From: an uncultured Anaerolineales bacterium
GTDB taxonomy: Bacteria > Chloroflexota > Anaerolineae > B4-G1
Reading direction: 5' to 3'
Assembly: GCA_964514285.1 (NCBI GenBank)
Contig: CAZEQC010000008.1
Location: 6,181 to 70,180, forward strand
Length of the DNA stretch: 64,000 bases
Shown: positions 1,459-53,863 of the stretch, piece after piece
How positions within the stretch are numbered: the stretch's first letter is position 1
Layout of the letters: each line of letters opens with the position of its first letter
Notes under the pieces: model-generated
Seen by the model: the letters and a program-made list of their open reading frames with translations, nothing else
Databases searched by the model: none
What the model was told of the DNA's origin: nothing
Made by a program: the position numbers and the translations under genes

Positions 1459-1468
1459 AGGCGTTCAT

Positions 1469-6682: not shown

Positions 6683-6764
6683 TGGGGAAGGCGGGACTCG
6701 AACCCGCACGGGTTACCCCACGTGATCCTAAGTCACGCTCGTCTGCCAATTCCGACACTTCCCC
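6683..6764 (-). tRNA. tRNA-Leu (anticodon UAG), type II with long variable arm; CCA not encoded
   Basis: The reverse complement folds by hand. Acceptor GGGGAAG/CTTCCCC plus A. Anticodon arm CGTGA-CTTAGGA-TCACG. Variable arm GGGGTAACCC. T arm GCGGG-TTCGAGT-CCCGC. Confidence 0.85.
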
Positions 6765-26238: not shown

Positions 26239-26568
26239 ATGAGAGTCTGGGATATCCGGCCGGAGAACCTTTGCCGCAACCACCTCCTCGGCGAGCACGC
26301 CGAGCTTCACGGCATCTGGACCATCCTGACCCAGGACAAACAGGGGTACGCGAACCATCCCGAGGTGGCACGCTGGCGGGGCAAGCTCAGAGCGCTCTAC
26401 AACAAACATGAGGAGATCGTTGCCGAGATGCTGCAGCGCGGCTACCGGCACAACAGTCCCCTCAACCGCAAGCTGGCCACCGGCAGCGAGGAACAAGACA
26501 CGCTCGTCGATACCCTTGAAGAACAAGGTCGCATCTTGAGAGACAAAGGCTGTGGCTGTCAGGTTTGA
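26239..26568 (+). CDS. pyrimidine-dimer DNA glycosylase (T4 endonuclease V-like family)
   Basis: 'MRVWDIRPENLCRNHLLGEHAELHGIW...HPEVARWRGKL..L..RH' matches the Pyr_excise family pattern. Confidence 0.75.
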   Translation: MRVWDIRPENLCRNHLLGEHAELHGIWTILTQDKQGYANHPEVARWRGKLRALYNKHEEIVAEMLQRGYRHNSPLNRKLATGSEEQDTLVDTLEEQGRILRDKGCGCQV

Positions 26569-26809
26569 CGTTCAGCTCACGAACAGCTTTCTGGCCGCTG
26601 AGCCAGCGACGCCTTACTTAACAGGCTCTCAAGGCGTTGCCATCCTCAGCGTGCCCCCCATTTGGGCGACTCGCTTCAACGCCCAGGCTGGCTTTATAAC
26701 GCGTCTAGGAGATCTTCTCTGTGTTCTCCGCACAAATGCCAGAATCGACGTAGTCGCCCATCATCTCGCGGCTGAGAATGGCAGAGCCGTGATACATTCT
26801 CCGGCAAAC

Positions 26810-26838
26810 TTGACAGATACTCTGATGCGTGATAGGAT
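26810..26838 (+). promoter_or_regulatory. sigma70-like promoter (TTGACA-N17-TAGGAT) heading the W/Mo super-operon
   Basis: Perfect -35 at 26810-26815 and -10 at 26833-26838. The predicted TSS at about 26845 coincides with the first leader hairpin. Confidence 0.45.
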
Positions 26839-26844
26839 GCTCTG

Positions 26845-27241
26845 GAATCGTACCGAAAGGTAGGATTCGAACCTGCACCTTACAAGCTCATAGCCACATC
26901 TCTGAACCGCTTGCCCTAAGGCGTCATCGAAGGGACGCTATGGCTAGCGGTCGCAGTGCCGTCTTCTGACGGCCAACGGTATGCAGGGAAACCTGTATAC
27001 CCCCCGTGTTTGGAAAGGAGAATGAGGCGAGGACTTCTTATGACCGGCGCCCTCTTCCCGATGCTAATCGGGCTTGTCCAATCTGGGGGCCGGTTCTTTG
27101 TTGCCCCGGACCCGAGCCCGGTTTGCCCCCTTTCCAGTGTGATACCCTGCAAACCCCACCAGTCAGCGCTAGGGCGCTAGATTGGTGAGGTCCTGTAGCC
27201 GTGCAGATTCCCTGCCAGATCTCTCGAAAGGATGGAAACCC
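26845..27241 (+). promoter_or_regulatory. structured 5' leader of about 400 nt, unclassified cis-regulatory RNA candidate
   Basis: Hand-folded plus-strand hairpins: 26845-26868 (GAAA loop), 26934-26952, 26958-26973 (GCCGTC/GACGGC), 26978-27001 (10 bp, GAAA loop, one G-U pair that would be an A-C mismatch on the minus strand) and 27057-27072 (CCCGAT/ATCGGG). No convincing ORF. Confidence 0.4.
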
Positions 27242-29749
27242 ATGAAAAACCGCAAAGCGCTCGCCCTCGTCCTATCCGCGGCCCTCGGCATCGGCCTGTT
27301 GTGGGCCCTCTTGGCTGCCCAACCTACCGTAGCCACGACAGCGGCCACCACCGCCACGGAGTCAATCACGATCACCAAGTATGCAGCTGATGGCACGACC
27401 GTACTTGCACAAGAAATCATCACCTATGGCCAGATGGAGGCCGCCCTCCCGGTGCACGGCGACGGGGAAACCCACTACTACTTCCAGGGGCCGACGTTCG
27501 ACCCGGATAACCTGTGGGACCCGGACGAGACCATCAATCTCAAGAACAAGGGCGCCATCAAAGGGACCGACATCAAGGATCTCGTGGACCTCGTCGGCGG
27601 CGCCGAGCCCGGCGATCAGATCGAGATCCTGGCGGAGGACAACTACGGGGACGCCTTCCCCTACGACAATGTGTACAACCCCGACCCGGGACAGGGCAAG
27701 ATGGTCGTCGCCTGGTACACCAAGAACGCCGGCGATGCCCACGACCTCTACCCCGATGGTGCGTACGTCCCCGAGTTCGGGGACGGCATGCAGCTCATCT
27801 TCCTTGCGCAGACAACCAACGGGGACGGGAAGCACGTCTTCGGGCACGATGACATGCGCGACTATCTCGCGGAGGAGAACCGACATTACTTCTGGGATGG
27901 CGGCATCCAATATCCCTCTTCCAATGGCACCTCCATCAAGTACATCAGCCAGATCAATGTCTACTCGCAGGCACCTGAGCCTTGGTCGATCGACGTGACC
28001 GGCGCCGTGACCACACCCGTCAGCCAGAGCTGGTTCGAGAACGCCCTCGCCTGCCACGAGGTGGTGACTTGGACCGACGGCGGCGGTGACGTGTGGAGTG
28101 GCCTACCTCTCTGGTACATGCTGGGACTCGCGGACGACGAGTACGTCCACGGCATCGGTTCCTTCAATGATGCTCTCGCCAAGGCAGGCTATGACATTGA
28201 GGTTAGGGCAGAGGACAACTACACGCAGTGGTTCGAAAGCGAGGACGTCCGTCGCTCCTCGGGCTACATCGTGGCCAACCTGATGAACGGGAGTCCTCTC
28301 ACCGACAGTTATCCGTTGAGACTGGTCGGGAGCGCGCTGACGTCGGGCTCCCAGCGAGTCAGTAACATTGCCAGCATCAATCTCCACAATATTCCCGAGA
28401 TCGAGACCTGGACTCTCGACCTGACGGGGGCCTACACGTACACGATGAGGCAGGCGGAGTTCGACAATGCCGTCATCTGCCCCAATATCGGGCACAGCGC
28501 CGTCTACACGGACGGAACCGATGTCTACGAAGGTCTGCCCCTCTGGCTTCTCGTCGGCTGGGTGGATGACGACGACGCCCACGGACCGGACTCGTTTAAC
28601 GACGAGCTCGCCGACCGTGGCTATGACGTCCGCGTGATCGCCACCGACGGTTTTAGCCACACCTTCCCCATCTCCGACGTCGCCCGCAACGACAACATCA
28701 TCGTGGCAAGCACCGTCAACGGGCAGGAGCTGCCAGCGGACGCATACCCGCTCAGGCTGATCGGCAGCGACGTGACCTCAGGCAAACAGAAGGTCAAGAA
28801 GATAGCCGAGATCGAGCTCCTTGACCTGCCAGGGCTCGACTATCACACTTACCTGCCGCTCGTCAGCAAACACTCCACCGCTTGGGACCTTGAGCTCAGC
28901 GGAGCGATGACCACGACTTTGACCGCGTCGGAGTTCGAGGCCGAGGCCTCAGACCATCCGGCCTCCTGGGACGATGGATCGGGCAACACGTACGGCGGCA
29001 TAGCTCTCTGGAGGCTGGTGGGTATGGTCGATGATGCCAACCCCGACGCATTCAACGACCAGTTCGCCGCTCTCGGGTATCAGGTCAAGGTGATCGCCGT
29101 CGATGACTACAGCTACACGTTCCAGGCCTCCGATATCCCCAAGGACGACGGCATCGTCGTCGCCAACACCCTGAACGGGGGCGCGCTGCCCGACGACGAG
29201 TCCCCGCTCAGGCTGGTCGGCAGCGCTCTGGTCTCCGGTGGACAGAGAGTCAAGAAGATAGCAAGAATCGAGCTGCTCAATCTGCCGACGGTGACCCCGG
29301 ATTGGGAGCTTGACCTGAGCGGCGCGATGACCACCACGCTGACTGCGACCGAGTTCGAGACGGAGGCCGCGGACCACCCCGCCTCCTATGATGATGGCTT
29401 CGGTAGTCTGTACGAGGGCGTGGCCCTCTGGCGGCTGGTGGGCATGGTCGACGACGACGACCCAGACACCTTCGACGACGACATCGCTGACTTAGGCTAT
29501 GACGTCAGCGTGATCGCCACCGACGGGTTCAGCTACACCTTCCCTATTTCGGACGTCGCTCGCAACGACAACATCATCGTGGCGAACACCGTCAACGGGG
29601 GAGAGCTGCCAGCCGACGCCTACCCGCTCAGGTTGGTGGGCAGCGCCCTGACCTCAGGCAGGCAGAAGGTCAGGCAGATCGCCAGTATCGAACTGGTCGG
29701 CCTGCCAGCCGTGGCAGGGAGACCCTATTCTCCGCCGTCAGACAGGTAG
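27242..29749 (+). CDS. secreted multidomain protein: N-terminal 'X' domain plus four sulfite-oxidase-fold-like (Oxidored_molyb-like) modules
   Basis: Signal peptide 'MKNRKALALVLSAALGIGLLWALLAAQP'. Modules end in 'YPLRLVGSALTSG.QKVK.IA.IEL', reminiscent of the YedY/SUOX '..PLRLVVP...K.VKW...I.' motif. The canonical Mo-ligand Cys motif is not recognisable. Confidence 0.75.
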   Translation: MKNRKALALVLSAALGIGLLWALLAAQPTVATTAATTATESITITKYAADGTTVLAQEIITYGQMEAALPVHGDGETHYYFQGPTFDPDNLWDPDETINLKNKGAIKGTDIKDLVDLVGGAEPGDQIEILAEDNYGDAFPYDNVYNPDPGQGKMVVAWYTKNAGDAHDLYPDGAYVPEFGDGMQLIFLAQTTNGDGKHVFGHDDMRDYLAEENRHYFWDGGIQYPSSNGTSIKYISQINVYSQAPEPWSIDVTGAVTTPVSQSWFENALACHEVVTWTDGGGDVWSGLPLWYMLGLADDEYVHGIGSFNDALAKAGYDIEVRAEDNYTQWFESEDVRRSSGYIVANLMNGSPLTDSYPLRLVGSALTSGSQRVSNIASINLHNIPEIETWTLDLTGAYTYTMRQAEFDNAVICPNIGHSAVYTDGTDVYEGLPLWLLVGWVDDDDAHGPDSFNDELADRGYDVRVIATDGFSHTFPISDVARNDNIIVASTVNGQELPADAYPLRLIGSDVTSGKQKVKKIAEIELLDLPGLDYHTYLPLVSKHSTAWDLELSGAMTTTLTASEFEAEASDHPASWDDGSGNTYGGIALWRLVGMVDDANPDAFNDQFAALGYQVKVIAVDDYSYTFQASDIPKDDGIVVANTLNGGALPDDESPLRLVGSALVSGGQRVKKIARIELLNLPTVTPDWELDLSGAMTTTLTATEFETEAADHPASYDDGFGSLYEGVALWRLVGMVDDDDPDTFDDDIADLGYDVSVIATDGFSYTFPISDVARNDNIIVANTVNGGELPADAYPLRLVGSALTSGRQKVRQIASIELVGLPAVAGRPYSPPSDR
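27983..29701 (+). repeat. four tandem intragenic modules of about 400 nt (about 135 aa): R1 27983-28384, R2 28409-28825, R3 28883-29281, R4 29303-29701
   Basis: Protein-level repeats 'W.LDL.GA.T......F....../W.G..LW.LVG.VDD.../GY.V.VIA.D.../PLRLVGS...SG.Q.VK.IA.IEL'. Nt 28621-28740 versus 29501-29620 is roughly 85-90% identical by manual count. Confidence 0.75.
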
Positions 29750-29887
29750 CACGCGGTCAGAAAGGGGGGCGGCTAGTCACCGCCCCCCGCGGCATGGATC
29801 GGCGGAGTCAGATAGCTCGCTGTGATGTCCAGTCGCAGGTTTGTGTCACGACCTAGGAGACACGACCTACACGTGCGGGAGGAGGAG

Positions 29888-30952
29888 ATGTCCATCAGAC
29901 CAGTAAGAATCGTCCTCGGGCTGGCGCTGGTACTGTCGGCCGCACTTATCCCTGCCCCTGCCGTCACGGCGGCCGGGACCACGTCAATACGCGTCGTCAA
30001 GTACGCCGCCGACGGGGTCACTGTCGTAGATGAGCGGACGATTAGCTACACCGAGATGGAGTCGCAACTCTCAGTGCAGGGGGATGGGAACACAACCTAC
30101 TATCACCAGGGTCCCACCTTCGAGGAGGATGACCTCTGGGACCCGGGCGAGACCCAGAATCTGAAAAGCAAGGGGGCGCCCCGGGGGACCGACCTCAAGG
30201 ATCTCTGCGAGCTCGTCGGCGGGATGTCTGCCGGCGACACTGTGAAGGTCTCCGCCGCCGACGGGTTCAACAAGACATTCGACTACACGAATGTCTACGA
30301 CCCGGAGCCGCGGCAGGGCAAGATCGTCGTCGCCTGGCATTCCGATCGAGACGGCTATGTCCCGAACTGGGGTGACGGCATGCTGCTCGTCTTCTTCGCC
30401 GAGACCACCAACGCCGAGGGACAGTACGTCTTCGGCAACGAGGATATGCGCCGATCGCTCCCTGAGGAGCGATGGCACTACTTCGACATCTATCCGTCAA
30501 CGAACGGCTATTCCGTCAAGAACATCGATGAGATCGCCATCTTCTCCGCGGCCGACGACGAAGACGGCGAGTCGCGGGAAGTCGCACAGGTGGACGTCTC
30601 AGCGACCGTCGTTCTTCCCCAGGTGGCGCTCTCTCTGAACAGAGGCGTCATCGACTACGGCGAAGTTCAGCCGGGCGGGAGCTCGCGGGTTGTGGACGTC
30701 GGCATCACGAATGTGGGCACGACGGAGGTCGATCTCACGCTTGAGGTGCGAGGTAACGACAACGTCGCTCAGCAATTCTACGAGCGTTCCCTCTATGTCG
30801 ACGGAACGGCGTACGCCCGTGCCGCCATCATAGCCAGGATCGAGAGGGCCCAGACAGAGAGCGTGGATACGCAGCTGAAGGTGCCCACTGACTGGGCCGA
30901 GGAGGGCCGGCAGGAGGCCGTCTTTGTCTTCTGGGCGGAGGCGGTAGATTGA
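29888..30952 (+). CDS. secreted protein: 'X' domain paralogue plus Ig-like C-terminal domain
   Basis: Signal peptide. 'IRVVKYAADGVTVVDERTISYTEME..L.VQGDGNTTYYHQGPTF...WDPGETQNLKSKGAPRGTDLKDLCELVGG' is collinear with the N-terminus of the 27242 gene. GGAGGAG RBS. Confidence 0.75.
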   Translation: MSIRPVRIVLGLALVLSAALIPAPAVTAAGTTSIRVVKYAADGVTVVDERTISYTEMESQLSVQGDGNTTYYHQGPTFEEDDLWDPGETQNLKSKGAPRGTDLKDLCELVGGMSAGDTVKVSAADGFNKTFDYTNVYDPEPRQGKIVVAWHSDRDGYVPNWGDGMLLVFFAETTNAEGQYVFGNEDMRRSLPEERWHYFDIYPSTNGYSVKNIDEIAIFSAADDEDGESREVAQVDVSATVVLPQVALSLNRGVIDYGEVQPGGSSRVVDVGITNVGTTEVDLTLEVRGNDNVAQQFYERSLYVDGTAYARAAIIARIERAQTESVDTQLKVPTDWAEEGRQEAVFVFWAEAVD

Positions 30953-32658
30953 CGTCGCGGTTGAAGCTCGCCGTCACCGTCCTGTTCACGGTGACGGCGC
31001 TGACAGGTCTCTTTCCCACAGCGGCGATCAGAGCCGATACCCTTCCCCCCCAGCCGCTGTGGGGCCCTTACGTCACCGGAACCACTGAAACGGGTGCCGT
31101 CGTCAATTGGAAGACGGAGAAAGCAAGCTGGGGCGTCGTGCAATACAGCGATCAGGTGGGGCACGAGGATTTCGTCCTCGACCCCACACCCCATCAGCTG
31201 CACCACGTCACCTTGACCGGGCTCCAGCCAGGCCGGGAATACCACTACCGCATCTGGCTTCTGGACCCCGACGTGAGCCCTGAACCCTTCCGAACGCGTT
31301 CCGCTGATGAGATGGAACGTTGGCTGCGAGAGCACGGCATCGCCGCCGCGGATTGCAGTTTCAGGACCCTGGGTTCCGAGCCCTTCACCTTCGTCGTCTA
31401 CGGTGACACCCAGGAGCAGGACCCCTTCTTCACGCAGATGGAGCGGCACAAGCTGGTCGCCGACTACGTCGCCCAAGAAGAGGATGTCTCCTTCGTCGTC
31501 CATCTCGGGGACCTCACCTATGACGCGGAGGATGCCGTAGGCTGGGACCTCTTCTTTGAAGCCGCAAGGGAGATGCTTGCGAACACCACGATCTATCCCG
31601 TGATGGGCAACCATGAGGATTACTCGCGGTACTACCACGAGATCTTCGGAGCGCCCGAATACTATGCGTTCCAGTCAGGGCAGGCGCGGTTTCTCGTCCT
31701 GGATACGAATGACCGGGCCGACTTCGACGCCCAGACCCGTTGGATTGAGGGCCAGGCCGGAACCCCTGCGGCGTGGATGTTCGCTTTTCATCACCATCCG
31801 GCCTACAGCTCAGACGCCAGAAACTACGGGGGGTGGGAGCTTTCGCGCAGCCACTGGGAGGACCTTTTCCGAGGCGCCGGCGTGAGGGCCGTCTTCTCCG
31901 GTCACGTACACGCCTACGAGCACTACCGGATACGGGGGCTTCACTACTTCGTCGTGGGAACCGGCGGCGGCATGCTGAGTGACCTCAGCCCAGATGCCCC
32001 GGCGGGCCTTCAAAACCGGTTAGCCAAGACCTTAGGCTACGCCAAAGTCACCGTGGAGAGCGAAGCGGCGATCATCCGCTTCCTAAAGGTCGCGCGTGTT
32101 TCTGAGGACAACCGTGAGGTCCTGGAGGTCTACCCGTTCGGAAGCGTCTTTGACACCGTCACCCTCCAGCCCGTTGAAGTGACACGTCCTGTGGCGAGTC
32201 CTGAGCCGGATTTTCGCATCTCGCCGCCTTCGTTGACCATCGCCGTCGATCGCCGCGGTAGTTCCCGCTTCAACTTGATGATGGCCTCCAGCGATGACGC
32301 GCAGATCATCGTGGACACGGAGGCCTTGCCCTTTGAGGTGGAGCCCAACACGCTGAAGATTGAGGGCTCTGGAAAGCCGCAGTCGTTTGAGCTGGAGCTG
32401 TTCGGGGACCCGTCGAGCCCCAACGGTGACTACGAGGGTAAACTCACCTTTGTGCGTGACGCCGGAGACAACGTGGCCCTCGGCGTCAAGGTCAGGACCA
32501 CCGTGACGCAAACGGGGAAGAGATCAAAGCCTCTTGCGTTCGGCCCTGACCAAACCATCCTGCTGATCGCCGTCGTTCTCGTGGTAGCCGCCAACATCGG
32601 CGTCTATGTCGCCTATCGGAAGTACAAAGCTCGCGTAGCCACAAGAAAGGATGCCTAA
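30949..32658 (+). CDS. purple-acid-phosphatase-like metallophosphoesterase with N-terminal FN3-like domain, Ig-like domain and C-terminal TM anchor
   Basis: Motifs 'VVYGDTQ', 'HLGDLTYD' (GDxxY), 'MGNHE', 'FHHHP' and 'SGHVHAYE'. N-terminal 'VNWKT...HHVTLTGLQPGREYHYRI'. TTG start overlaps the upstream stop (TTGA). Confidence 0.8.
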   Translation: MTSRLKLAVTVLFTVTALTGLFPTAAIRADTLPPQPLWGPYVTGTTETGAVVNWKTEKASWGVVQYSDQVGHEDFVLDPTPHQLHHVTLTGLQPGREYHYRIWLLDPDVSPEPFRTRSADEMERWLREHGIAAADCSFRTLGSEPFTFVVYGDTQEQDPFFTQMERHKLVADYVAQEEDVSFVVHLGDLTYDAEDAVGWDLFFEAAREMLANTTIYPVMGNHEDYSRYYHEIFGAPEYYAFQSGQARFLVLDTNDRADFDAQTRWIEGQAGTPAAWMFAFHHHPAYSSDARNYGGWELSRSHWEDLFRGAGVRAVFSGHVHAYEHYRIRGLHYFVVGTGGGMLSDLSPDAPAGLQNRLAKTLGYAKVTVESEAAIIRFLKVARVSEDNREVLEVYPFGSVFDTVTLQPVEVTRPVASPEPDFRISPPSLTIAVDRRGSSRFNLMMASSDDAQIIVDTEALPFEVEPNTLKIEGSGKPQSFELELFGDPSSPNGDYEGKLTFVRDAGDNVALGVKVRTTVTQTGKRSKPLAFGPDQTILLIAVVLVVAANIGVYVAYRKYKARVATRKDA

Positions 32659-33568
32659 ACGGATGAAGAAGCTTGTCGTTTGGTCGATACTTCTGGCCGG
32701 CCTGCTGTCGCTCGTGGCCGGCGCGCCCCCAGCTGCGGTCGCGGCAGGCGCAACCACGGAGCTCCACATCGTCAAGGTCGCCGCGGACGGCACGACGATC
32801 ATCTCCGAACGGACTGTGTCGTACAATTGGATGGAGGAGAACCTCCCTGTACACGGAGACGGTGCCACGCACTACTACCATCAGGGTCCAGTGTTCGAGG
32901 GAGATATGTGGGACCCCTCGGAAGCGCGAAACCTGAAGGACAAAGGCGCTGTGAAAGGCACTGACGCCCGCGACTTGTGTGAGCTCGTCGGGGGCATGCG
33001 CCCCGGTGACGAGGTGCGTTTCGTTGCGGTCGATGGTTGGCATACCGACTTCGCCTACGAGAACGTCTACGAGCCGCTGGACAGACAGGGTCGGATTGTT
33101 CTCGCCTGGTACAACGGCGAGGAGCCGGCAGATGGCGAGAAATACGGCACCGGCTACCCGGGGGTCGAGGGGTATCACACCGCCATGCAGATCGTGTTCA
33201 TGGCCGCCACCACCAACGAGGCAGGCAAGCACGTCTTTGGCAACGCGGATATGCGCGTGAGCTTGCCCCAAGAGGAGTATCAGCACTTCTACCAGGGTTA
33301 CCCCAGTACGAACGGCCTTTCCGGCAAGTGGATCACCGAGCTGATCATCAATTCCCAAGAAGAGGCGCCCCCTGCCGCGAGTGCGACTCTGTCGGATGCT
33401 CCCGAGTCGGAGCCGGAGGTTGGAGAGACCCCGGGAGAGCAGCGCGAAGCAGAATCGGACTCGAACAGCCTCCTGACTCCTGCGCTGTGGCTCGCCCTGG
33501 GGCTGGGGATTGTGGGGCTGGGACTCACCTCTTTTGCCTTCCTTCGCCTTCGGAAGGAGGCAACCTGA
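32651..33568 (+). CDS. 'X' domain paralogue with acidic linker and C-terminal TM anchor
   Basis: Signal peptide. 'LHIVKVAADGTTIISERTVSYNWMEENLPVHGDGATHYYHQGPVF' is the third copy of the X domain. C-terminal 'LWLALGLGIVGLGLTSFAFLRLRK'. Overlaps the upstream gene by 8 nt. Confidence 0.75.
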   Translation: MPKRMKKLVVWSILLAGLLSLVAGAPPAAVAAGATTELHIVKVAADGTTIISERTVSYNWMEENLPVHGDGATHYYHQGPVFEGDMWDPSEARNLKDKGAVKGTDARDLCELVGGMRPGDEVRFVAVDGWHTDFAYENVYEPLDRQGRIVLAWYNGEEPADGEKYGTGYPGVEGYHTAMQIVFMAATTNEAGKHVFGNADMRVSLPQEEYQHFYQGYPSTNGLSGKWITELIINSQEEAPPAASATLSDAPESEPEVGETPGEQREAESDSNSLLTPALWLALGLGIVGLGLTSFAFLRLRKEAT

Positions 33569-33576
33569 GACACGAG

Positions 33577-34194
33577 ATGACGCGCCTTTTCGAACGAACG
33601 TCGAGGACCACTTGGTTGATCCTGGCGGCGGGGGTGCTGTTTCTCGGCGGCGGGCTCCTATTGGGCCTGCGCCAGTGGGGCGGACCCGACCGGGTCGAAC
33701 CTGTGGAATGGGATCTGACCCTGGTCGGCCGTGAGGGGCAGGAGCTGGTCCTCTCATACGACGAAGTAGTGTCGCTCCCCAGCGTGGAGACCCGTGCGGG
33801 GTTCTTCTCGTCCGTCGGGACGGTTTATGGCCCCTACACAGTGAGAGGGATTCCGCTTGATACGCTCCTCAATCTGGTCGGCGGCATATCCCCCTCCGAT
33901 GTGCTCTTCGTGGCCGCCAAAGATGGCTACTCCTGCGTCTTCGACTATGCACAGCTCCAAGGAGACATCGCCACATTCGAGCCGGACACACTCACGATGG
34001 TTCCGGAAGGAGATGTGCGATACCTCCTCATCTTCGAGCAGGACGGAGAGCCCTTACCTGAGAATAGCGGAAAGCCTCTCAGGCTGGCTGTCGCCAATCC
34101 CGACGGCCTGCTCACCGAAGGCCATTGGTGGGTCAAATGGGTCAAGCGCCTGGAGATACGGACCCTGACATCCGATTCGGACAATGGCGAATGA
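33577..34194 (+). CDS. N-terminally anchored single sulfite-oxidase-fold (Oxidored_molyb-like) domain protein lacking the Mo-ligand Cys
   Basis: TM 'WLILAAGVLFLGGGLLLGL', then 'WDLTLVG...VRGIPLDTLLNLVGG...FVAAKDGY...EQDGEPLPENSGKPLRLAVAN....GHWWVKWVKRLEI' (YedY-like C-terminal signature). Confidence 0.7.
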   Translation: MTRLFERTSRTTWLILAAGVLFLGGGLLLGLRQWGGPDRVEPVEWDLTLVGREGQELVLSYDEVVSLPSVETRAGFFSSVGTVYGPYTVRGIPLDTLLNLVGGISPSDVLFVAAKDGYSCVFDYAQLQGDIATFEPDTLTMVPEGDVRYLLIFEQDGEPLPENSGKPLRLAVANPDGLLTEGHWWVKWVKRLEIRTLTSDSDNGE

Positions 34195-34277
34195 GAAATC
34201 GAGGTCGACGTGAAAATCACTGCCAAACCTCGATGGGCTGCACCGGTGACGCCATCCTGCGCCCTGAGGAGGACCAC

Positions 34278-35354
34278 GTGAAGAACCTTTCCGTTATCCT
34301 CCTCGTATCGCTCTTCGCCCTTCTGCTGACCGGGTGCAGCGGCGGCGTCCCCATGCTTCCAGGCCAGGAGAAGAAGACGGAGATGCGCGTCCTCTTTGCT
34401 GGGAGCCTGATCCTCCCCTTCGACGACCTAGAACACGCCTTCGAGGAGCAGCACCCCAACATCGACGTCTTGATGGAGGGTCACGGATCGATTCAGTGTA
34501 TCCGTCAGGTCACGGAGCTCGAGAGACTGGCCGACGTCATCGCGGTGGCTGACTACTCGCTGATTCCGCTCCTGATGTATGAATCCAAGAACCCCGACAC
34601 AGACGAGCCCTACGCCGACTGGACGCTGCAGTTTGCCACAAACGAGCTCGGTCTAGCCTACACGGATGCCAGCGCCTATGCTGGGGAGATCGATGCCGAC
34701 AACTGGTATCGGATCCTATCCAGGCCCGATGTCGTCTTCGGCATCTCGGACCCACGGTTCGACGCCTGCGGCTACCGCGGCCTGATGTTGGGGCAGCTGG
34801 CGGTCTCGTACTACGACGAGCCGGATCTCTTCTATGACCTCTTCAGCGACCGATTCACCCAGCGGGTGGAGGTGCAGCGCGACCCGCGCGACGACCTCGA
34901 CACGATCCTGATACCCGAGGTGCTACGACCCGAAAGCGACAGCGGGCTGGTGATGCGCGGCTCCAGCGTCCAACTGCTGGGCGTGTTGGAATCGGGCGAT
35001 TTGGATTACGGCTTCGAGTACCTGAGTGTCTCCAGGCAGCGTGACCTGCGGTTCTTGGCCCTGCCCGAGGAGATCAACCTCAGCAGCGAAGCACACCAGG
35101 AGAACTACAGCCGCGCTCGTGTGAAGCTTGCCTATCAGCGTTTCGCCTCCGTCAATCCGGAGTTCGAGGGCAAGACCATCCACTACGGCCTGACCATCCC
35201 GTCCAACGCACCCCACCCCGATCTGGCCGTCGAGCTGATCCAGTTCCTCCTCGGCCCCGACGGTCAGAGGATCATGGCCGAGAACAACCATCCTATGATC
35301 CTTCCTCCCATCGTCGACCGCGAGGAGGCGCTGCCATGGGCACTCCAGCCGTGA
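34278..35354 (+). CDS. wtpA: tungstate/molybdate ABC transporter substrate-binding lipoprotein, WtpA type
   Basis: Lipobox 'LLLTGCSGG'. Collinear by eye with Pyrococcus WtpA: 'FAGSL..PF..L..AFEE.HPN..V..E..GS...IR.VTEL.R.ADV.A.ADY.LI', 'NWY.IL.RPDV.FG.S.P..D.CGYR', 'SG.LDY.F.Y.SV'. GTG after GAGGAGG. Confidence 0.85.
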   Translation: MKNLSVILLVSLFALLLTGCSGGVPMLPGQEKKTEMRVLFAGSLILPFDDLEHAFEEQHPNIDVLMEGHGSIQCIRQVTELERLADVIAVADYSLIPLLMYESKNPDTDEPYADWTLQFATNELGLAYTDASAYAGEIDADNWYRILSRPDVVFGISDPRFDACGYRGLMLGQLAVSYYDEPDLFYDLFSDRFTQRVEVQRDPRDDLDTILIPEVLRPESDSGLVMRGSSVQLLGVLESGDLDYGFEYLSVSRQRDLRFLALPEEINLSSEAHQENYSRARVKLAYQRFASVNPEFEGKTIHYGLTIPSNAPHPDLAVELIQFLLGPDGQRIMAENNHPMILPPIVDREEALPWALQP

Positions 35355-35388
35355 GGCGAGAAGTGGATTGCGTCACACGTGACCCGTT

Positions 35389-36168
35389 ATGACTCTTTTC
35401 TCTAGCCGTCTCTCGGCGCTGTTCACAGTCTTGGCCGCGCTCCTGGTCCTCTTCATCGCCTGGCCTCTGGTGCGTACCGTCACCGGTTCCCAGCCGGCGG
35501 TCACGTGGGAGACGCTCCTGGAGGCCGAGGTGCGGAATGCCATCCTCCTCACCTTCTACAGCTCGGCTTGGGCAACCGTCATCGCCTTCGTCACCGGGGT
35601 GCCCCTGGCGTATCTGCTTGCCCGCACCGACTTCCCCGGCAAGCGCTGGATTGAGGGAATCGTCGATGTGCCCGTCGTGGTACCCCATTCGGCCGCCGGC
35701 ATCGCGCTACTCTTGGTCTTCGGAAGGCGATCGTTTCTGGGCCGGACGTTCGGCCGGATGGGGCTCAGGTTCGTCTCGGCTGTTCCGGGCATTGTGATCG
35801 CCATGCTCTTCGTAAGCCTCTCGTTCCTGGTCGATGCGGCCCGCGAGGGGTTTGAGAGCGTCGATCCTCGGCTTGAGCGCGTAGCGCGCACCCTCGGTGC
35901 CTCTCCCTGGCAGACGTTTTGGCGCGTCTCCTTCCCGCTGGCGCGGCGCAGCATCCTCTCCGGGATGATCCTCATGTGGGCAAGGGGACTGAGCGAGTTC
36001 GGCGCCGTGGTCATCCTCGCCTATCATCCTATGATCGCTCCGGTGCTCCTCTTCGAGCGGTTTCAGTCGCTCGGGCTCGACTACGCCACGCCGGTGGCAG
36101 CCATCATTGTCATCATCTGCCTTCTCACGTTTGTAGCCCTACGCTTCGTCGCTCAGGAGAGGGAGTAG
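35389..36168 (+). CDS. wtpB: tungstate/molybdate ABC transporter permease (WtpB/ModB family)
   Basis: 6 TM and a CysTW/ModB-type EAA loop, 'ESVDPRLERVARTLGASPWQTFWRVSFPLA'. Confidence 0.85.
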   Translation: MTLFSSRLSALFTVLAALLVLFIAWPLVRTVTGSQPAVTWETLLEAEVRNAILLTFYSSAWATVIAFVTGVPLAYLLARTDFPGKRWIEGIVDVPVVVPHSAAGIALLLVFGRRSFLGRTFGRMGLRFVSAVPGIVIAMLFVSLSFLVDAAREGFESVDPRLERVARTLGASPWQTFWRVSFPLARRSILSGMILMWARGLSEFGAVVILAYHPMIAPVLLFERFQSLGLDYATPVAAIIVIICLLTFVALRFVAQERE

Positions 36169-36170
36169 CG

Positions 36171-37301
36171 ATGGGCCTGCGAGGGCGTCTGCAAACGCTC
36201 CGTACCCTGCACGCGGCCCACCGCCAGCGGCCCACGCAAGAACCAGCCGCGCTGCGGATCCAGGATCTCCACGTAGACCTTGAGGAGTTCCACCTGGAGG
36301 CAATAAACCTCGAGATCGCCGCCGGGGAATACTTCGTCCTACTCGGTCCGACGGGAGCGGGGAAGACTGTCCTCCTCGAGACAGTAGCGGGGCTCTTGCC
36401 CCCTCTCAGAGGACGCATCGTCATCGACGGGAACGACATAACCGAGACGCCCCCAGAGCGGCGAGGGTCGGGCTTCGTCTACCAGGACTACGCACTCTTC
36501 CCACACCTGAACGTGGCCGACAACATCGCCTTCGGCCTGAGGCTGAACCGGCACCTGCCAGGTGACGCAGTCGAGCGCCGAGTTACGGAGATGGCTTGCT
36601 TGCTGTCTATCCACCACCTCCTTCACCGTAGCCCCAACACACTCAGCGGGGGCGAGCGACAGCGGGTCGCCCTCGCGCGGGCCTTGGTTACGGAACCGGC
36701 CGTCTTGCTGCTCGACGAACCTCTCAGTGCCCTCGATCCCCAGACGCGCACGGGCTTGCAGCGAGAGCTGAGCCGCATCCACCGCCAGCTGAAAACAACC
36801 ACGCTCCACGTTACCCACGACTTCCAGGAGGCTGTGACGCTGGCCGATCGTATCGGGCTCCTCCACCAGGGCCGGATTGTCCAGGTTGGCACACCTGAGG
36901 ACATCTTCCGTCGGCCGGCCAGTTCGTTCGTCGCGCGATTCGTGGGCGCTCGCAACCTCCTGGTCGGTGAACTGGTGGAGACAACCGAGGCAGGGCATAG
37001 GAGGTTTGAAACCCGTGGGCTCGACATCGCCGTCGACACTGACCTCCGTGGGCAGGCCCACGCCTCCATCCGGCCCGAAGACATCTTCATCTCTAGGGAA
37101 CCGGTACGCACGGATCCCCGAAACTGTTATCAGGGCACCATCGCGCGCATCGCCGACCGGGGGTCACTCGTCTACGTGACGGTCGATGTCCCGCCGGCCT
37201 TCGTCTGTGCCATCACTCGATACTCGCTGGAGCAGATGGGGCTGCAGCCGGGGATGCCCGTTTACGTCACGTTCAAGCCGTCGGCTGTTCACGTGTTCTA
37301 G
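36171..37301 (+). CDS. wtpC: tungstate/molybdate ABC transporter ATP-binding protein with C-terminal TOBE domain
   Basis: Walker A 'GPTGAGKT', 'LSGGERQRVALARAL', 'LLLDEPLSALD' and the TOBE-like tail 'SLVYVTVDV....CAITRYSLEQMGLQPGMPVYVTFKPSAVHVF'. Confidence 0.85.
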   Translation: MGLRGRLQTLRTLHAAHRQRPTQEPAALRIQDLHVDLEEFHLEAINLEIAAGEYFVLLGPTGAGKTVLLETVAGLLPPLRGRIVIDGNDITETPPERRGSGFVYQDYALFPHLNVADNIAFGLRLNRHLPGDAVERRVTEMACLLSIHHLLHRSPNTLSGGERQRVALARALVTEPAVLLLDEPLSALDPQTRTGLQRELSRIHRQLKTTTLHVTHDFQEAVTLADRIGLLHQGRIVQVGTPEDIFRRPASSFVARFVGARNLLVGELVETTEAGHRRFETRGLDIAVDTDLRGQAHASIRPEDIFISREPVRTDPRNCYQGTIARIADRGSLVYVTVDVPPAFVCAITRYSLEQMGLQPGMPVYVTFKPSAVHVF

Positions 37302-37432
37302 CTTGGCTTCAACTGCGTCGTTACGGCGCATATGATCCCGGGGCCAAGCCAGTCGCTCGCTCGGTCCCAGGAAAGATAGGGGCAATTATCGACGAGATCA
37401 TTCGCGGCATATCAGAAGCCTTTCGCCTGATC

Positions 37433-38101
37433 GTGACGCTCGACCCGGCGCTCCTGCAGGTGGTGTCACTCTCCCTGCGGGTCTCGGGAATCGCACTTCT
37501 GTTCAGCACGGTCATCGGCATCCCATTGGGGGCGATGCTCGGACTGAACCGTTTCCGGGGCCGCCGGCTCATCATCGCTCTCCTCTATACCGGGATGGGC
37601 TTCCCACCCGTAGTGGTCGGCTTGTTCGTCTACTTGATGCTATCTCGAAGCGGCCCACTGGGTCAGATGACCGCGCCGGTGATCCCCGACCTCTTCACGC
37701 CGGGAGCCATGGTGGTCGCTCAGACGATCATCTCGTTCCCCTTGGTGGCGGGTTTCACCATGGCTGCCGTCATGGGCGTCGATCCGGGGCTCCGACGACA
37801 GGTCCAGGCCCTGGGTGCCACCCCTTGGCAGACGACACTGGCTATCCTCGTCGAGGCCCGCATCGGCGTCATCGTCTCGATCATCGCCGGCTTCGGCAGC
37901 ATCATATCCGAGGTTGGCGCCGTCATGATGGTGGGAGGGAACATCGAAGGCAGTACGCGCATGCTGACCACGGCCATCGTCCTGGAGACCCGGAAAGGGA
38001 ATTTCGACTTAGCCATGGCCATCGGCGTGATCCTCTTGGCTATCTCCTTCGCGGCGAATCTGCTGATGCAGCGGCTCCAGGGAAGGACGGTCGACGAATG
38101 A
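37433..38101 (+). CDS. tupB: tungstate ABC transporter permease, TupB type (true start probably upstream at a non-canonical codon)
   Basis: 5-6 TM. 'LDPALLQVVSLSLRVSGIALLFSTVIGIPLGAML' resembles TupB. The in-frame upstream 'IIDEIIRGISEAFRLIV' also resembles the TupB N-terminus. Confidence 0.8.
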   Translation: MTLDPALLQVVSLSLRVSGIALLFSTVIGIPLGAMLGLNRFRGRRLIIALLYTGMGFPPVVVGLFVYLMLSRSGPLGQMTAPVIPDLFTPGAMVVAQTIISFPLVAGFTMAAVMGVDPGLRRQVQALGATPWQTTLAILVEARIGVIVSIIAGFGSIISEVGAVMMVGGNIEGSTRMLTTAIVLETRKGNFDLAMAIGVILLAISFAANLLMQRLQGRTVDE

Positions 38102-38829
38102 GCGACTTCATCTACCGCATGCAGAACGTCTCTAAGACCTACGACGAACGGCGTGTGCTCACCGTCGACCATCTGCGTATCCGGCGTGGAGAGATCTTTG
38201 CCTTGGTCGGCCCGAGTGGTGCGGGCAAGAGCACGTTCCTGCGGCTGCTTAACTTCCTAGAAAGCCCAAACACAGGCCGCATCCGGTTCCTCGACGTCGA
38301 GTTCAGCTCCATGGGACAGGTTCCCCTACGACTCCGAAGACGCGTCACCACGGTCTTCCAGCGACCGATTCTCTTGAACCGCACCGTACACGCCAACGTG
38401 GCCTACGGGCTCAGGCTGCGCAGCGAGGAGGACGTAGGAGAGAAGGTCTGCCAAGCCCTGGAGGAAGTCGGCCTCGAGAATCACGCGCGTCAGCGTGCGA
38501 GGACCCTGTCCGGGGGCGAGGCCCAGCGAGTCGCCCTGGCGCGGGCCATTGTCCTGGACCCCGACGTCCTACTGCTTGATGAGCCGACGGCCAACCTCGA
38601 TCCCTACAACGTTGGCTTGATCGAGGAGATCGTTCAGCAGCGCAACCGTGAGCAGGGCACCACCCTGGTGTTGGTCACACACAATGTCTTCCAGGCCAAG
38701 CGGTTAGCCGACCGCGTGGCGCTGATGCTGGAAGGCGAGATCGTGGAGGTAGCCGACGTCGAGACCTTCTTCGAAGAACCCGACGATCCACGAACCGCCG
38801 CGTTCGTCCGCGGCGATATGATCTACTAA
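38098..38829 (+). CDS. tupC: tungstate ABC transporter ATP-binding protein, TupC type
   Basis: Walker A 'GPSGAGKST', 'LSGGEAQRVALARAI' and 'LLLDEPTANLD'. ATGA overlap with tupB. Confidence 0.85.
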   Translation: MSDFIYRMQNVSKTYDERRVLTVDHLRIRRGEIFALVGPSGAGKSTFLRLLNFLESPNTGRIRFLDVEFSSMGQVPLRLRRRVTTVFQRPILLNRTVHANVAYGLRLRSEEDVGEKVCQALEEVGLENHARQRARTLSGGEAQRVALARAIVLDPDVLLLDEPTANLDPYNVGLIEEIVQQRNREQGTTLVLVTHNVFQAKRLADRVALMLEGEIVEVADVETFFEEPDDPRTAAFVRGDMIY

Positions 38830-38849
38830 CCAATCATAAGGAGGAATCG

Positions 38850-39767
38850 ATGTTCCGACGAATCGTGAGTCTGTTGACGGCGCTGACTCTGTTGGCCGGC
38901 ACGCTGATGGCGTGCGGCCCGCAGCAACCAACCGAACTCCCACCCACCCCCACCCAACGTCCACCAACGGCCACAGAGACCGAAGCGGAGGAGACGCGGA
39001 CGCTGACCCTAGCCACCACCACCAGCACCGAGAACTCGGGGCTGCTCGGCTATCTGCTGCCCTTCTTCGAGGAGGAGTACAACACCGAGGTCGAGGTCAT
39101 CGCGGTGGGAACGGGCCAGGCCCTGCAGATCGGCGAGGATGGGAACGCCGACGTCCTGATGGTCCACGCCCGCTCTCTGGAGGACGCCTTCATGGATGCG
39201 GGACACGGCGTCCGGCGCGAGGACCTGATGTACAACGACTTCGTCATCGTCGGCCCGCGCGATGATCCGGCCGGCATCGAGGGCACGACCGATGCCGCCG
39301 CCGCTTTCGCTCAGATTGCGGAGGCTGAGGCTACCTTCATCTCCCGCGGCGACGAATCGGGCACACACACCAAGGAGAAGACCATCTGGTCCGCCGCGGG
39401 TGTCGAACCCTCCGGCGACTGGTATATAGCCGCTGGGCAGGGCATGGGCGCCGTGTTGACTATGGCCGACGAGCAGGAGGGCTATACCCTCAGCGACCGG
39501 GCCACCTACCTGGCCCGCACCCTGGAGGGGACTGACCTGGTCATCCTCACCGAGGGTGACCCGATCCTCTTCAATCCGTATGGCGTCATCGCCGTCAATC
39601 CCGACAAGAGCCCGGAGATCAACGCCGAGCTGGCCAACCAGTTCATCGACTGGCTCATCTCCGTGCCCACCCAGGAGAAGATCGCCGAGTTCGGTGTGGA
39701 GCAGTTCGGCTCGCCGCTCTTCACGCCCGACTCAGAGCCTTGGCGAGAGGCGAACCCGGACGGCTAG
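38850..39767 (+). CDS. tupA: tungstate ABC transporter substrate-binding lipoprotein, TupA type
   Basis: Lipobox 'LLAGTLMACG'. 'LTLATTTSTENSGLLGYLLPFFEEEYNTEVEVIAVGTGQALQIGEDGNADVLMVHA...YNDFVIVGP.DDPAGI' matches the TupA pattern. Confidence 0.85.
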   Translation: MFRRIVSLLTALTLLAGTLMACGPQQPTELPPTPTQRPPTATETEAEETRTLTLATTTSTENSGLLGYLLPFFEEEYNTEVEVIAVGTGQALQIGEDGNADVLMVHARSLEDAFMDAGHGVRREDLMYNDFVIVGPRDDPAGIEGTTDAAAAFAQIAEAEATFISRGDESGTHTKEKTIWSAAGVEPSGDWYIAAGQGMGAVLTMADEQEGYTLSDRATYLARTLEGTDLVILTEGDPILFNPYGVIAVNPDKSPEINAELANQFIDWLISVPTQEKIAEFGVEQFGSPLFTPDSEPWREANPDG

Positions 39768-43517: not shown

Positions 43518-44006
43518 TTGGACACACGCCAAGTCGTCCGCCTGCGGGTTCACGAAGGCTACTGGGGCCATGACTGGAACTGCGCCGTCACGACGCTCCG
43601 CATCCTCAGCGAGGTCTTCGATATCTCCCTTCATCGGCAGGTGCTCGACGGGGCCCTGGGTATGCACGGGGCCGGGGGCTATCGCGCTCAGTGTGGCTTG
43701 GTGGAGGGTGCCCTTATGGCCATCGGAATCCTTGGCAAGGCCAGAGGGCTCGACGACGACGCCGTCGTGGAGGCGTGTTACCGCTTTGCCGAGGCCTTCG
43801 AGGATCGCTTCGGCAGCCTGCTCTGCCAAGAGTTGCGGCCCGAGGGATTCAGCCCCGACAATCCGCCCCACCTGTGCGAGGAACTGACGCGAAGAGCGAT
43901 CCTCTTCGACATCCAGGTCATAGGCGACGAGCTAATCAGAAAGAAGGAGAGGGAGAGAGCAGAGGGGGTGCCGACCGACCCTCTCGACCCCTACAGTGAA
44001 CGATGA
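43518..44006 (+). CDS. C_GCAxxG_C_C family putative redox-active protein
   Basis: 'NCAVTTL', '[18 protein letters not shown]', 'FGSLLCQEL' and '[11 protein letters not shown]' reproduce the C...GCxxxG...C...C pattern. TTG start. Confidence 0.7.
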
Positions 44007-44485
44007 GCCTTTCACACGTGGACGAAGAAGGACGCATCCGCATGGTCGGCGTGGGTCACAAACCCGACACCGTGCGTCTGGCCGTCGCCAAGGGCGAGGT
44101 ACGGATGAGGTCAGAGACACTGCGCCTCATCGCTCAGGGCGAAGCACCCAAAGGGGATGTGCTGAATACGGCGCGGATTGCCGGCATTATGGCTGCCAAA
44201 CGCACCCACGAGCTTATCCCCCTCTGTCACCCCCTGCCGCTCACCAAGGTCGACGTCGATTTCGCCATCGACCCGGACGCTTCGCGAGTCGTCATCACGG
44301 CCACGGCCCGCTGCACCGGCAAGACGGGCGTGGAGATGGAGGCCCTTACTGCCGTCAGCGTCGCCGCCCTGACCGTCTACGATATGGCCAAGGCGGTTGA
44401 GAAGACGATGGAGATAGGCCGGATTCGCTTGGTGACTAAGACAGGTGGGAAGAGCGGGGACTGGGAACGTGAGGATGACGTATGA
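44003..44485 (+). CDS. moaC: cyclic pyranopterin monophosphate synthase
   Basis: '[24 protein letters not shown]', '[29 protein letters not shown]', '[23 protein letters not shown]'. Confidence 0.95.
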
Positions 44486-44778: not shown

Positions 44779-45234
44779 ATGAAGCTCTTTGAGATAACGA
44801 CAGCGCCGCTCTCCGTCGACGACGTCGTCGCTCGCCTCGCCCGCCCGTCCATTGGCGCCGTCACCACCTTTGTCGGGGTGGTGCGCGGCGAGACCGACGG
44901 GCGCGAGACCCGGCGACTCGAGTACGAGGCGTACCCCGAGATGGCCGAGGAGCAGCTCCAGCGGATCGGCGACGAGATCCGTCGGCGGTGGCCCACGATT
45001 CGCCAGGTGGCCATCGTCCACCGCATCGGACACCTGCAAATCGGGGAGACCATCGTCGTCATCGCCGTATCATCCCCTCACCGTCAGGAGACCTTCGCCG
45101 CGACGCACTATGCCATCGATCGGCTCAAGGAGATCGTGCCCATCTGGAAGAAGGAGGTCTGGAAGGACGGAGAGGCTTGGCGGAGTGAGCAGACAGAGAG
45201 CAAGCGAGCACAGGAGCAGGAGGAGAGAGAATAG
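44779..45234 (+). CDS. moaE: molybdopterin synthase catalytic subunit
   Basis: 'GAVTTFVGVVRGE', 'LEYEAYPEMAE', 'VAIVHRIGHLQIGETIVVIAVSSPHRQEAF', 'IDRLKEIVPIWKKE'. Confidence 0.9.
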   Translation: MKLFEITTAPLSVDDVVARLARPSIGAVTTFVGVVRGETDGRETRRLEYEAYPEMAEEQLQRIGDEIRRRWPTIRQVAIVHRIGHLQIGETIVVIAVSSPHRQETFAATHYAIDRLKEIVPIWKKEVWKDGEAWRSEQTESKRAQEQEERE

Positions 45235-46460
45235 TGGAACCCATGCTGAGCTTGGAAGAGGCCCAAGAACGAGTACTGAGCGTGTTTGAACCGGTGGAGA
45301 CGGAGTGCGTGCCCATCCTCAAAGCCGCCGGACGCGTGCTGGCCGAGGATGCCTACGCCGACGCGGATATCCCTCCCCACGCCAACTCGTCCATGGACGG
45401 CTTCGCCGTCCGGGCTGTCGATACTGCCGCTGCTGATCCAGGCGATCCCGCCCAGCTGCGCATCATCGGTGATCTGCCCGCCGGCTACGTCCCCGAGCGG
45501 GCCGTGAAGCCCGGCACGGCCATCCGCATCATGACCGGCGCGCCGCTCCCACCGGGTGCCGATGCCGTGGTCAAGGTCGAGGATACAGAGACCCAGGATG
45601 ACGCCGTGCACATCCTCACCGCAGTCGAGCCTGGCAACTACGTCCGGCCGGCCGGCGAGGACGTGCGCCAGGGCTCCCTCGTCCTCCGCCACGGGACGCG
45701 ACTCCGCCCTCAGGAGATCGGCATGCTGGCTGGGCTGGGACACGAGCAGGTCACCGTGGCCCGTAAACCCCGCGTGGCGATCCTCGCCACGGGAGATGAG
45801 TTGGTGGGCATCGACGAACCTCTCCTCCCAGGCAAGATTCGCAACACCAACACCTACTCGAACGCGGCCCAGGTTCTCGAGCACGGCGGCGAGCCCATCC
45901 TCCTCGGAATCGCCCGCGATCGCGTCGAGGAGCTGACGGCCAAGATCAGGGCCGGGCTGGATCAAGGTGTCGATCTCTTCCTCACCTCCGGCGGCGTCTC
46001 CGTCGGGGACTTTGACCTGGTGAAGGAGGTGCTGGCCACCGAGGGGCAGATGGCCTTCTGGCGTGTGCGGATGAAGCCGGGCAAGCCCCTGGCGTTCGGA
46101 GACGTCGGCGGCGTCCCGGTGCTCGGACTACCCGGCAACCCCGTGTCGGTCATGGTCTCCTTTGAGATGTTCGTCCGCCCCGCCCTTCTGAGGATGCAGG
46201 GCGCAGTGGACTGGCGCCGTCCCACCGTCGAAGCCACCCTGGTGGACGAGATCAAGCAAAAGGACGAGAGGCGCCACTTCGTCCGCGTCCACCTCGTCTG
46301 GGACGAGGGATCCTATCGCGCCTACCTCACCGGCGCCCAGGGGTCGGGCATCCTCAGCTCTATGGTCAAAGCCAACGCTCTGGCCATCATCCCTGAGGAC
46401 TGGGATCACGCCCCGGCTGGAGCGCGCGTGGAGGTGATGATGCTGGAGTGTCAGAGGTGA
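45234..46460 (+). CDS. moeA: molybdopterin molybdo/tungsto-transferase
   Basis: 'LSLEEAQERVL', 'PPHANSSMDGFAVR', 'IMTGAPLPPGADAVV', 'VAILATGDELV', 'IRNTNTY', 'DLFLTSGGVSVGDFD', 'KPGKPLAFG', 'LGLPGNPVS'. Confidence 0.9.
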   Translation: MEPMLSLEEAQERVLSVFEPVETECVPILKAAGRVLAEDAYADADIPPHANSSMDGFAVRAVDTAAADPGDPAQLRIIGDLPAGYVPERAVKPGTAIRIMTGAPLPPGADAVVKVEDTETQDDAVHILTAVEPGNYVRPAGEDVRQGSLVLRHGTRLRPQEIGMLAGLGHEQVTVARKPRVAILATGDELVGIDEPLLPGKIRNTNTYSNAAQVLEHGGEPILLGIARDRVEELTAKIRAGLDQGVDLFLTSGGVSVGDFDLVKEVLATEGQMAFWRVRMKPGKPLAFGDVGGVPVLGLPGNPVSVMVSFEMFVRPALLRMQGAVDWRRPTVEATLVDEIKQKDERRHFVRVHLVWDEGSYRAYLTGAQGSGILSSMVKANALAIIPEDWDHAPAGARVEVMMLECQR

Positions 46461-53731: not shown

Positions 53732-53863
53732 CAGATCTCCAGGTAACTGTTCACCTGCTGCTCCCAGCGGATCCGTGATCCGCAGCCTTGGGCGCGGAAT
53801 TGCCGGATCACGGGCGGAAGGCCGCCTAATCCGGCTAGAGTATGAGAGCCACAAAGTGAATAG

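Follow-up and report, generated by a model that had tools for sequence, protein, structure and literature searches.

A Moco/Tuco (RF01055) riboswitch with a transcription terminator in the leader of a tungstate/molybdate uptake operon from an uncultured Anaerolineales bacterium

The stretch of DNA analyzed here, referred to as the window, comprises 64,000 nucleotides of contig CAZEQC010000008.1 from an uncultured Anaerolineales bacterium (GCA_964514285.1). It contains an operon whose genes all lie on the + strand and are separated by short gaps, a strand and spacing pattern from which co-transcription can be inferred. Gene 1 is followed by a 376-aa paralogue of its N-terminal domain without a Pfam match, and then by a purple-acid-phosphatase-like protein, a 305-aa protein and a small Oxidored_molyb protein. 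Next come WtpA, WtpB-like and WtpC-like proteins, a TupB-like permease, an ATPase and a TupA-like binding protein. WtpA scores 302.9 bits with TIGR03730 (cutoff 242.75), and the TupA-like protein, at 231 bits, falls short of its cutoff of 400. Orthologues show the same operon gene order. Pfam and NCBIfam assignments thus confirm a tungstate/molybdate uptake operon, as an earlier note written from the sequence had read it, and downstream W/Mo transporters of this kind are the classic regulon of the RF01055 riboswitches. Elsewhere in the window are genes for MoaA, MoaC and MoeA and for an aldehyde:ferredoxin oxidoreductase of the AOR family (Table 1). A phage-integrase-family gene (52652-53854, - strand) adjoins the AOR gene. 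The window has a single tRNA, a tRNA-Leu (6683-6764, - strand). No link to the leader was found for the integrase gene or the tRNA.

The genes ahead of WtpA form an uncharacterized module (window 27242-34194; loci L161-L175) with an order conserved across Chloroflexota. Its first gene encodes a secreted protein composed of an N-terminal domain of ~290 aa without a Pfam match and two to four Oxidored_molyb-like repeats; the remainder encodes an N-terminal-domain paralogue of ~355 aa, the purple-acid-phosphatase-like protein, a protein of ~302 aa and the small Oxidored_molyb protein. Homologues of the gene-1 protein number 182 at E <= 1e-10 and come from Chloroflexota, Bacillota and Methanomicrobia/ANME archaea, the archaeal forms having 1,200-1,400 aa. 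An exact look-up of the window gene-1 protein in public collections returned no record, the nearest being a 97% relative (L081); the records closest to the window are L001 and L081.

Table 1 Features of the leader, the operon and related genes (window coordinates)
Feature	Position	Strand	Basis or description
Sigma-70-type promoter	26810-26838	+	-35 TTGACA, 17-nt spacer, extended -10 TG-n-TAGGAT
Stem-loop adjoining the 5' end	26845-26868	+	GAAUC-G-UACC GAAA GGUA-G-GAUUC
Moco/Tuco aptamer RF01055	26888-27036	+	cmscan, 62.4 bits
P1	26893-26903 with 27017-27028	+	MFE fold
P2	26906-26951	+	receptor motif CCUAAG (26915-26920)/UAUGG (26940-26944)
P3 hairpin	26958-26973	+	GCCGUC UUCU GACGGC, 6-bp
P4	26978-26987 with 26992-27001	+	GAAA tetraloop 26988-26991
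P5	27004-27013	+	MFE fold
Candidate antiterminator	27017-27079	+	27017-27019/27077-27079, 27021-27022/27074-27075, 27024-27029/27048-27054
53-codon ORF, not a gene	27022-27180	+	second in-frame ATG at 27040
Intrinsic terminator	27042-27103	+	outer stem 27042-27052/27085-27095, inner hairpin 27057-27072
U-rich tail of terminator, UUCUUUGUUG	27094-27103	+	window sequence
Spacer	27104-27221	+	lineage-specific hairpins, e.g. 27157-27187; not a conserved element
RBS, GAAAGGAUGG	27226-27235	+	ahead of ATG 27242
Regulated operon	27242-39767	+	Pfam and NCBIfam scans
Gene 1	27242-29749	+	835-aa secreted protein with Oxidored_molyb-like repeats; signal-peptide-like N-terminus
MoaA	42516-43514	+	
MoaC	44003-44485	+	
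MoeA	45234-46460	+	
AOR-family aldehyde:ferredoxin oxidoreductase	50636-52528	-	AFOR_N/AFOR_C, tungstoenzyme family

The leader upstream of gene 1 is a member of the known Moco/Tuco riboswitch family (RF01055) joined to a transcription terminator, and is not a new RNA. The earlier note had taken it for one element of ~400 nt and a candidate novel riboswitch or ncRNA that could not be matched to Moco, and had suggested a cmscan search for RF01055, which settled the main question. With Rfam 15, the molybdenum/tungsten cofactor riboswitch aptamer is matched with 62.4 bits (gathering score, 36), on the + strand only and over model positions 1-135 of 135, with E = 1.4e-12 for the whole window and 2.1e-14 locally. 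A permissive Rfam scan of 26500-27500 (E <= 10) returned no family besides RF01055. Rfam finds one RF01055 copy in the 64-kb window, and none ahead of the AOR gene, MoaA, MoaC or MoeA. The proposed metal- or cofactor-responsive cis element is therefore present as an RF01055 riboswitch, of a family already described in 2008 that any Infernal/Rfam annotation would label here; a literature search for RF01055 in Chloroflexi found nothing specific. The supposed single element is really a promoter, a 5' hairpin, the aptamer, the terminator, a poorly conserved spacer and an RBS, with only 26888-27103 (aptamer and terminator) forming the riboswitch proper.

For comparison, 175 loci were fetched and scanned with a model built from the aptamers of relatives, which gave 48 aptamer matches, none of them in loci titled methanogen or other archaeon. 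RF01055 lies upstream of the gene-1 orthologue in most Chloroflexota and Bacillota loci, immediately so in most of the Chloroflexota ones. The homologue comparison proposed in the earlier note found both a recurring element and covariation within it. The leader alignment comprised nine sequences, all from Chloroflexota MAGs and metagenomes (the window, L081, L001, L162, L164, L082, L003, L168 and L084). Four blocks are conserved over these nine: the promoter hexamers, the aptamer, a post-aptamer block and the RBS. When the alignment is folded to a consensus, pairing is limited to the aptamer and a second helix set, which spans 27042-27095 of the window. The orthologous operons of L002, L004, L163, L169 and L170-L172 have no riboswitch, so this control is dispensable. 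In L169, a divergent gene (1422-2516, minus strand) encoding a protein with a GntR-HTH and an SBP_bac_11/PBP_like domain adjoins the operon, and its product may be an oxyanion-responsive regulator in place of the RNA switch. In Dehalococcoidia-type relatives, the orthologue is preceded by a tandem pair of P3-less RF01055 aptamers with 50-100 nt between them (L005 2954-3253; L006 3515-3849; L007 86-420, identical to L087; L085 1406-1695; L044 3542-3866; L137 396-718), and tandem aptamers seem to be common at this operon. For S. wolfei and G. metallireducens, tandem and triple arrangements were already described in 2008.

The promoter that the earlier note placed ~400 nt ahead of the first start codon is present, with 404 nt from the -10 element to the ATG. 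It has 10 of 12 consensus matches and a TG ahead of the -10 hexamer, and is the sole such site in 26300-27600 (shuffles mean 0.3). TTGACA and TG-n-TAnnAT occur in register in all nine orthologous leaders. The predicted transcription start is ~26845, where the 5' hairpin begins (-13.4 kcal/mol, z = -5.6). This first GAAA hairpin, with its loop at 26855-26858 as previously described, is a stem-loop separate from the riboswitch. Hairpins of differing sequence occupy its position in L164, L082, L003 and L168, with weaker ones in L001 and L162 and none in L084; it likely protects the 5' end of the mRNA. Three further ideas for this region were rejected. A tRNA-derived element with a T-arm-like GGAUUCGAACC at 26864-26874 was negative there with both ARAGORN and Rfam. 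Neither a tRNA remnant nor an att site was detected from GGATTCGAACC in the 5' hairpin, and among the leaders only the window and L081, its 97% relative, carry this motif and GGAUUCGAACC. A long-range helix enclosing the leader (26869-26873/27204-27208) has 67% of cells paired, a value reached by 82 of 500 shuffles. Six of the nine leaders conserve the linker between 5' hairpin and aptamer (26873-26886, GCACCUUACAAGCU), although no reason for this is apparent. Its CACCUU is partly complementary to the RBS segment AAGGAUG (27228-27234), which may reflect chance or a weak long-range interaction with the RBS.

The unconstrained MFE fold of 26888-27105 yields P1-P5 and a further large hairpin, the terminator, and the aptamer fold has z = -4.3. 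The GNRA tetraloop of P4 and the tetraloop receptor of P2 are both present; a tetraloop-receptor correlation in Moco/Tuco RNAs has been described (PMC2408646). In an alignment of 15 related aptamers, 17 of the 28 consensus pairs show compensatory (double-sided) changes. The genomic context likewise fits RF01055, the aptamer lying in the 5' leader of a wtpABC/tup-like operon with a covarying terminator after P1. Because the fold reproduces the RF01055 architecture, the second GAAA hairpin (loop at 26988-26991) and the 10-bp stem with a G-U pair (G26983-U26996), both correctly seen earlier, can be identified as P4 of the known aptamer. The minimum of five plus-strand hairpins claimed earlier is also exceeded, with at least seven found (5' hairpin, distal P2, P3, P4, P5, inner terminator hairpin and 27157-27187), and the described dip in GC content is real, at 0.51-0.53 over 26700-26999 compared with 0.60-0.65 in the flanks. 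Over 26840-27260, both strands fold better than shuffles (z = -4.19 for the + strand and -3.82 for the - strand), and folding energy alone therefore cannot assign the strand. The plus sense argued for previously is instead set by the Rfam match, the G-U pairs and the U-tail.

The post-aptamer helix set is an intrinsic terminator (-27.7 kcal/mol, z = -3.0). Its outer stem pairs the consensus (G/A)CCGGCGCC with GG(C)GCCGG(U), and 96% of cells are paired over the nine leaders, compared with 41-57% in slid-partner controls. Three outer-stem pairs show double-sided changes, a count reached by 2 of 500 shuffles; compensatory examples are CCGACGCC/GGUGUCGG in L164 and CCGGCACC/GGUGCCGG in L168. A U-rich tail follows the terminator in all nine leaders, such as UUUUGUUUUU in L084 and UUUAUUUUU in L164. 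The window's own tail is interrupted, and the terminator has a large internal loop. A simple terminator scan with a loop limit of 8 nt called no terminator, which is a false negative because the loop exceeds that limit.

A candidate antiterminator employs the 3' strand of P1 and the 5' strand of the terminator, and it recurs when each leader is folded only up to the emergence of the terminator 3' strand. In this structure, GGAGA of the P1 3' strand is predicted to pair with the loop block UUUCC, and GAGGC(G) with GCCUU/CGCCCUC of the terminator 5' strand. Over the leaders, 89% of cells are paired, compared with 36-57% in slid controls, and there is one compensatory pair; since there is only one, the antiterminator is taken here as inferred. 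The conservation of the loop block UUUCCAAU, otherwise unexplained, would follow from its pairing with GGAGA/GGAAA on the 3' side of P1.

The terminator and the RBS lie about 140 nt apart, and the switch model gives the stretch between them no role. In L003 and L164 the spacer cannot be aligned, and in L168, L084 and L175 it is deleted. Because of these three deletions, and because the consensus fold of the leaders has no pairs there, a conserved structure in 27104-27221 was rejected. The tandem copies in relatives suggested a degenerate second aptamer in the 205-nt post-aptamer stretch, which was likewise rejected, with no Rfam match at E <= 10 and nothing above 7 bits in a search with our own model and filters off. 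Ahead of gene 1, the block GAAAGGAUGGrAA-N-(A/G)TG is kept in eight of nine leaders.

Taken together, we consider it quite probable that the leader is a single-copy RF01055 riboswitch with P3 that works as a genetic OFF switch by means of intrinsic transcription termination. From the conserved promoter, RNA polymerase would start at ~26845. Abundant metal-pterin cofactor would bind the aptamer, stabilize P1 and sequester strand 27017-27028. The GC-rich outer stem and U-tail could then form, and transcription would end at ~27100, ahead of the operon. Under cofactor shortage, the 3' strand of P1 would be free to pair with the terminator 5' strand and loop and so form the antiterminator, allowing RNA polymerase to read through and the 12.5-kb uptake operon to be expressed. 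An OFF switch based on competition between P1, antiterminator and terminator is the most likely arrangement given these pairings, because ligand-stabilized P1 would withdraw the 5' half of the antiterminator and let the terminator form. Both OFF logic and terminator platforms are known in the RF01055 family (PMC2408646; PMC11725836). The riboswitch ties the uncharacterized secreted Oxidored_molyb-repeat module to W/Mo cofactor homeostasis.

Three readings would give the leader another or an additional role. One is the original proposal of a novel riboswitch or stand-alone ncRNA outside known families. The long structured leader (z = -4.2), with ~200 nt outside the Rfam model, would be in keeping with such an RNA. 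However, the core scores almost twice the RF01055 gathering score, the uncovered parts are the terminator, the 5' hairpin and the non-conserved spacer, and the region yielded neither a second aptamer nor another Rfam family, which leaves this proposal barely credible. Alternatively, the leader could act through translation of a short ORF (start at 27022 or 27040, end at 27180), whether its product serves as a leader peptide or the effect is one of translational coupling and polarity, with the aptamer governing the Shine-Dalgarno sequences of the ORF (GGAG 27017-27020; AGGA 27030-27033). The conserved GGAAAGGAG box of the family is SD-like, an ATG lies 6 nt past AGGA in seven of nine leaders, and in the E. 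coli moaA platform an RBS is sequestered within P1 (PMC2408646). Yet L164 and L168 have no such ATG, and the frame is shifted by indels of 1, 2 and 14 nt, none of them a multiple of three. The predicted products of 46-98 aa are unrelated after about five residues and have no Pfam match, and what is conserved is a paired stem with compensatory changes. The sORF was rejected as a conserved peptide on these grounds, and regulation through it is highly improbable. This outcome agrees with the view of the earlier note that the interval holds no credible ORF (none matches Pfam) and that the 53-codon ORF is probably untranslated, its frame, start and peptide being unconserved in the orthologous leaders; a conserved protein-coding sORF, named there as a possible alternative explanation of the region, is not found. 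Lastly, the terminated leader of ~255 nt (26845 to ~27100) might double as a trans-acting small RNA, as for some riboswitch-terminated transcripts. The stable 5' hairpin and the terminator would give a discrete structured RNA, but all conserved features are accounted for by cis function, and we regard such a second role as very unlikely.

The alternative that carries more weight concerns not the family but the ligand, namely that the same RF01055 riboswitch senses Tuco or both cofactors despite its P3, which would then be no determinant in this lineage. P3-containing RNAs were found only with Moco/MPT genes, and P3-less RNAs with tungsten-cofactor organisms or genes including tupA and wtpA (PMC2408646); a 2024 study takes P3 loss as a mark of W-dependence (PMC11725836). 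The window combines features of both types. It has P3, as a 6-bp hairpin between P2 and P4, and an association with Moco/MPT genes only is not seen, as wtpABC and the TupA-like gene lie downstream and the AOR gene lies in the window. The Moco/Tuco ligand is unstable, and direct binding is difficult to show even for E. coli moaA.

P3 is a conserved structure in the clade of the window. The eight P3-containing leaders (window, L081, L001, L162, L164, L082, L003 and L168) represent lineages with five differing stem sequences, all of which pair. The J2/4 insert is 25-26 nt in P3 members and 5-6 nt, usually CGAUAG, in P3-less members. Among the 48 aptamers, P3 is restricted to this clade, L033 and the first copy of the L105 tandem, and ~35 of the 48 aptamers beside the gene-1 family are P3-less. 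L084/L173 and the sister L175 have no P3 and a long P2 instead, and they keep the promoter, P1, P4, terminator, RBS and operon order. A rough NJ tree of gene-1 proteins, without support values, places L084 and L175 among P3-containing lineages, which suggests a secondary loss of P3. Either L084/L175-type lineages changed cofactor without a change in the operon, or P3 is not the specificity determinant. The mixed tandem of L105 (1442-1574 and 1610-1728) has a first aptamer with a P3-like insert (J2/4 of 21 nt, GGC-GUAA-GCC-like) and a P3-less second one; the gene-1 homologue lies ~2.3 kb further downstream, past an intervening gene. If P3 encodes Moco versus Tuco selectivity, this tandem would be a two-input device for Mo and W.

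Sensing of Tuco by the window aptamer would suit an operon that encodes WtpA (above its NCBIfam cutoff), WtpB/C-like and TupA-like proteins and a window that also carries an AOR-family tungstoenzyme gene. It would also suit the prevalence of P3-less, "Tuco-type" aptamers near the same gene family, and the nesting of L084 and L175, with their shared promoter, terminator, RBS and operon order, among P3 leaders. Against it stand the TupA-like protein's score under the curated cutoff, the lack of support values in the NJ tree, and the published correlation of P3 with Moco genes (PMC2408646), which is still the rule in PMC11725836. On balance, a Tuco-sensing or dual-sensing P3 form is possible but somewhat doubtful. 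Similarly, we entertain only tentatively the broader idea that both forms sense the same cofactor, or that the P3 form senses Tuco, such that the P3 rule is no specificity code; if true, the real Moco/Tuco determinant sits elsewhere in the junction. WtpA-type binding proteins reportedly bind molybdate as well as tungstate, and a Moco-sensing switch on a wtp operon is for this reason not contradictory. A Moco-sensing P3 switch on a dual W/Mo uptake operon is therefore fully possible and is the conservative reading. Orthologous leaders with and without P3 on one operon provide a test case for the unproven idea of P3 selectivity.

Compared with the P3-containing RF01055 type represented by E. coli moaA (PMC2408646), the window aptamer has the same arrangement of P1-P5 about a multi-stem junction, the same GAAA tetraloop on P4 and the same receptor, CCUAAG/UAUGG, in P2, and it shares the conserved CCCGUGUUUGGAAAGGAG 3' core. 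P3 is common to both, both lie in 5' leaders of Mo/W cofactor-related genes, and OFF logic is expected for both. The junctions flanking P3 are longer in the window (CGCAGU ... CAAC). The expression platforms also differ: in the window it is an intrinsic terminator ~5 nt past P1, with the RBS 200 nt further on, whereas the RBS of moaA lies inside P1. In contrast with the P3 RNAs of the 2008 survey, which occur with Moco/MPT genes only, the window aptamer regulates a WtpABC/Tup-like operon headed by secreted Oxidored_molyb-like proteins.

In the kind of regulon, the window instead resembles the P3-less Tuco riboswitches of S. wolfei and Pelobacter (PMC2408646), with tungstate uptake and nearby tungstoenzymes, and those of Eubacterium limosum, which precede tupABC, wor1, fetABC and focA (PMC11725836). 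A terminator-type platform is also common to some of these members. The P3-less Tuco type is used by orthologous operons in L084/L175, Dehalococcoidia and Bacillota, often in tandem, whereas the window has a single aptamer with a well-paired, covarying 6-bp P3. With the loci described here, RF01055 is seen to control a widespread, uncharacterized operon of Chloroflexota and Bacillota that encodes secreted Oxidored_molyb-repeat proteins, a purple-acid-phosphatase-like protein and WtpABC.
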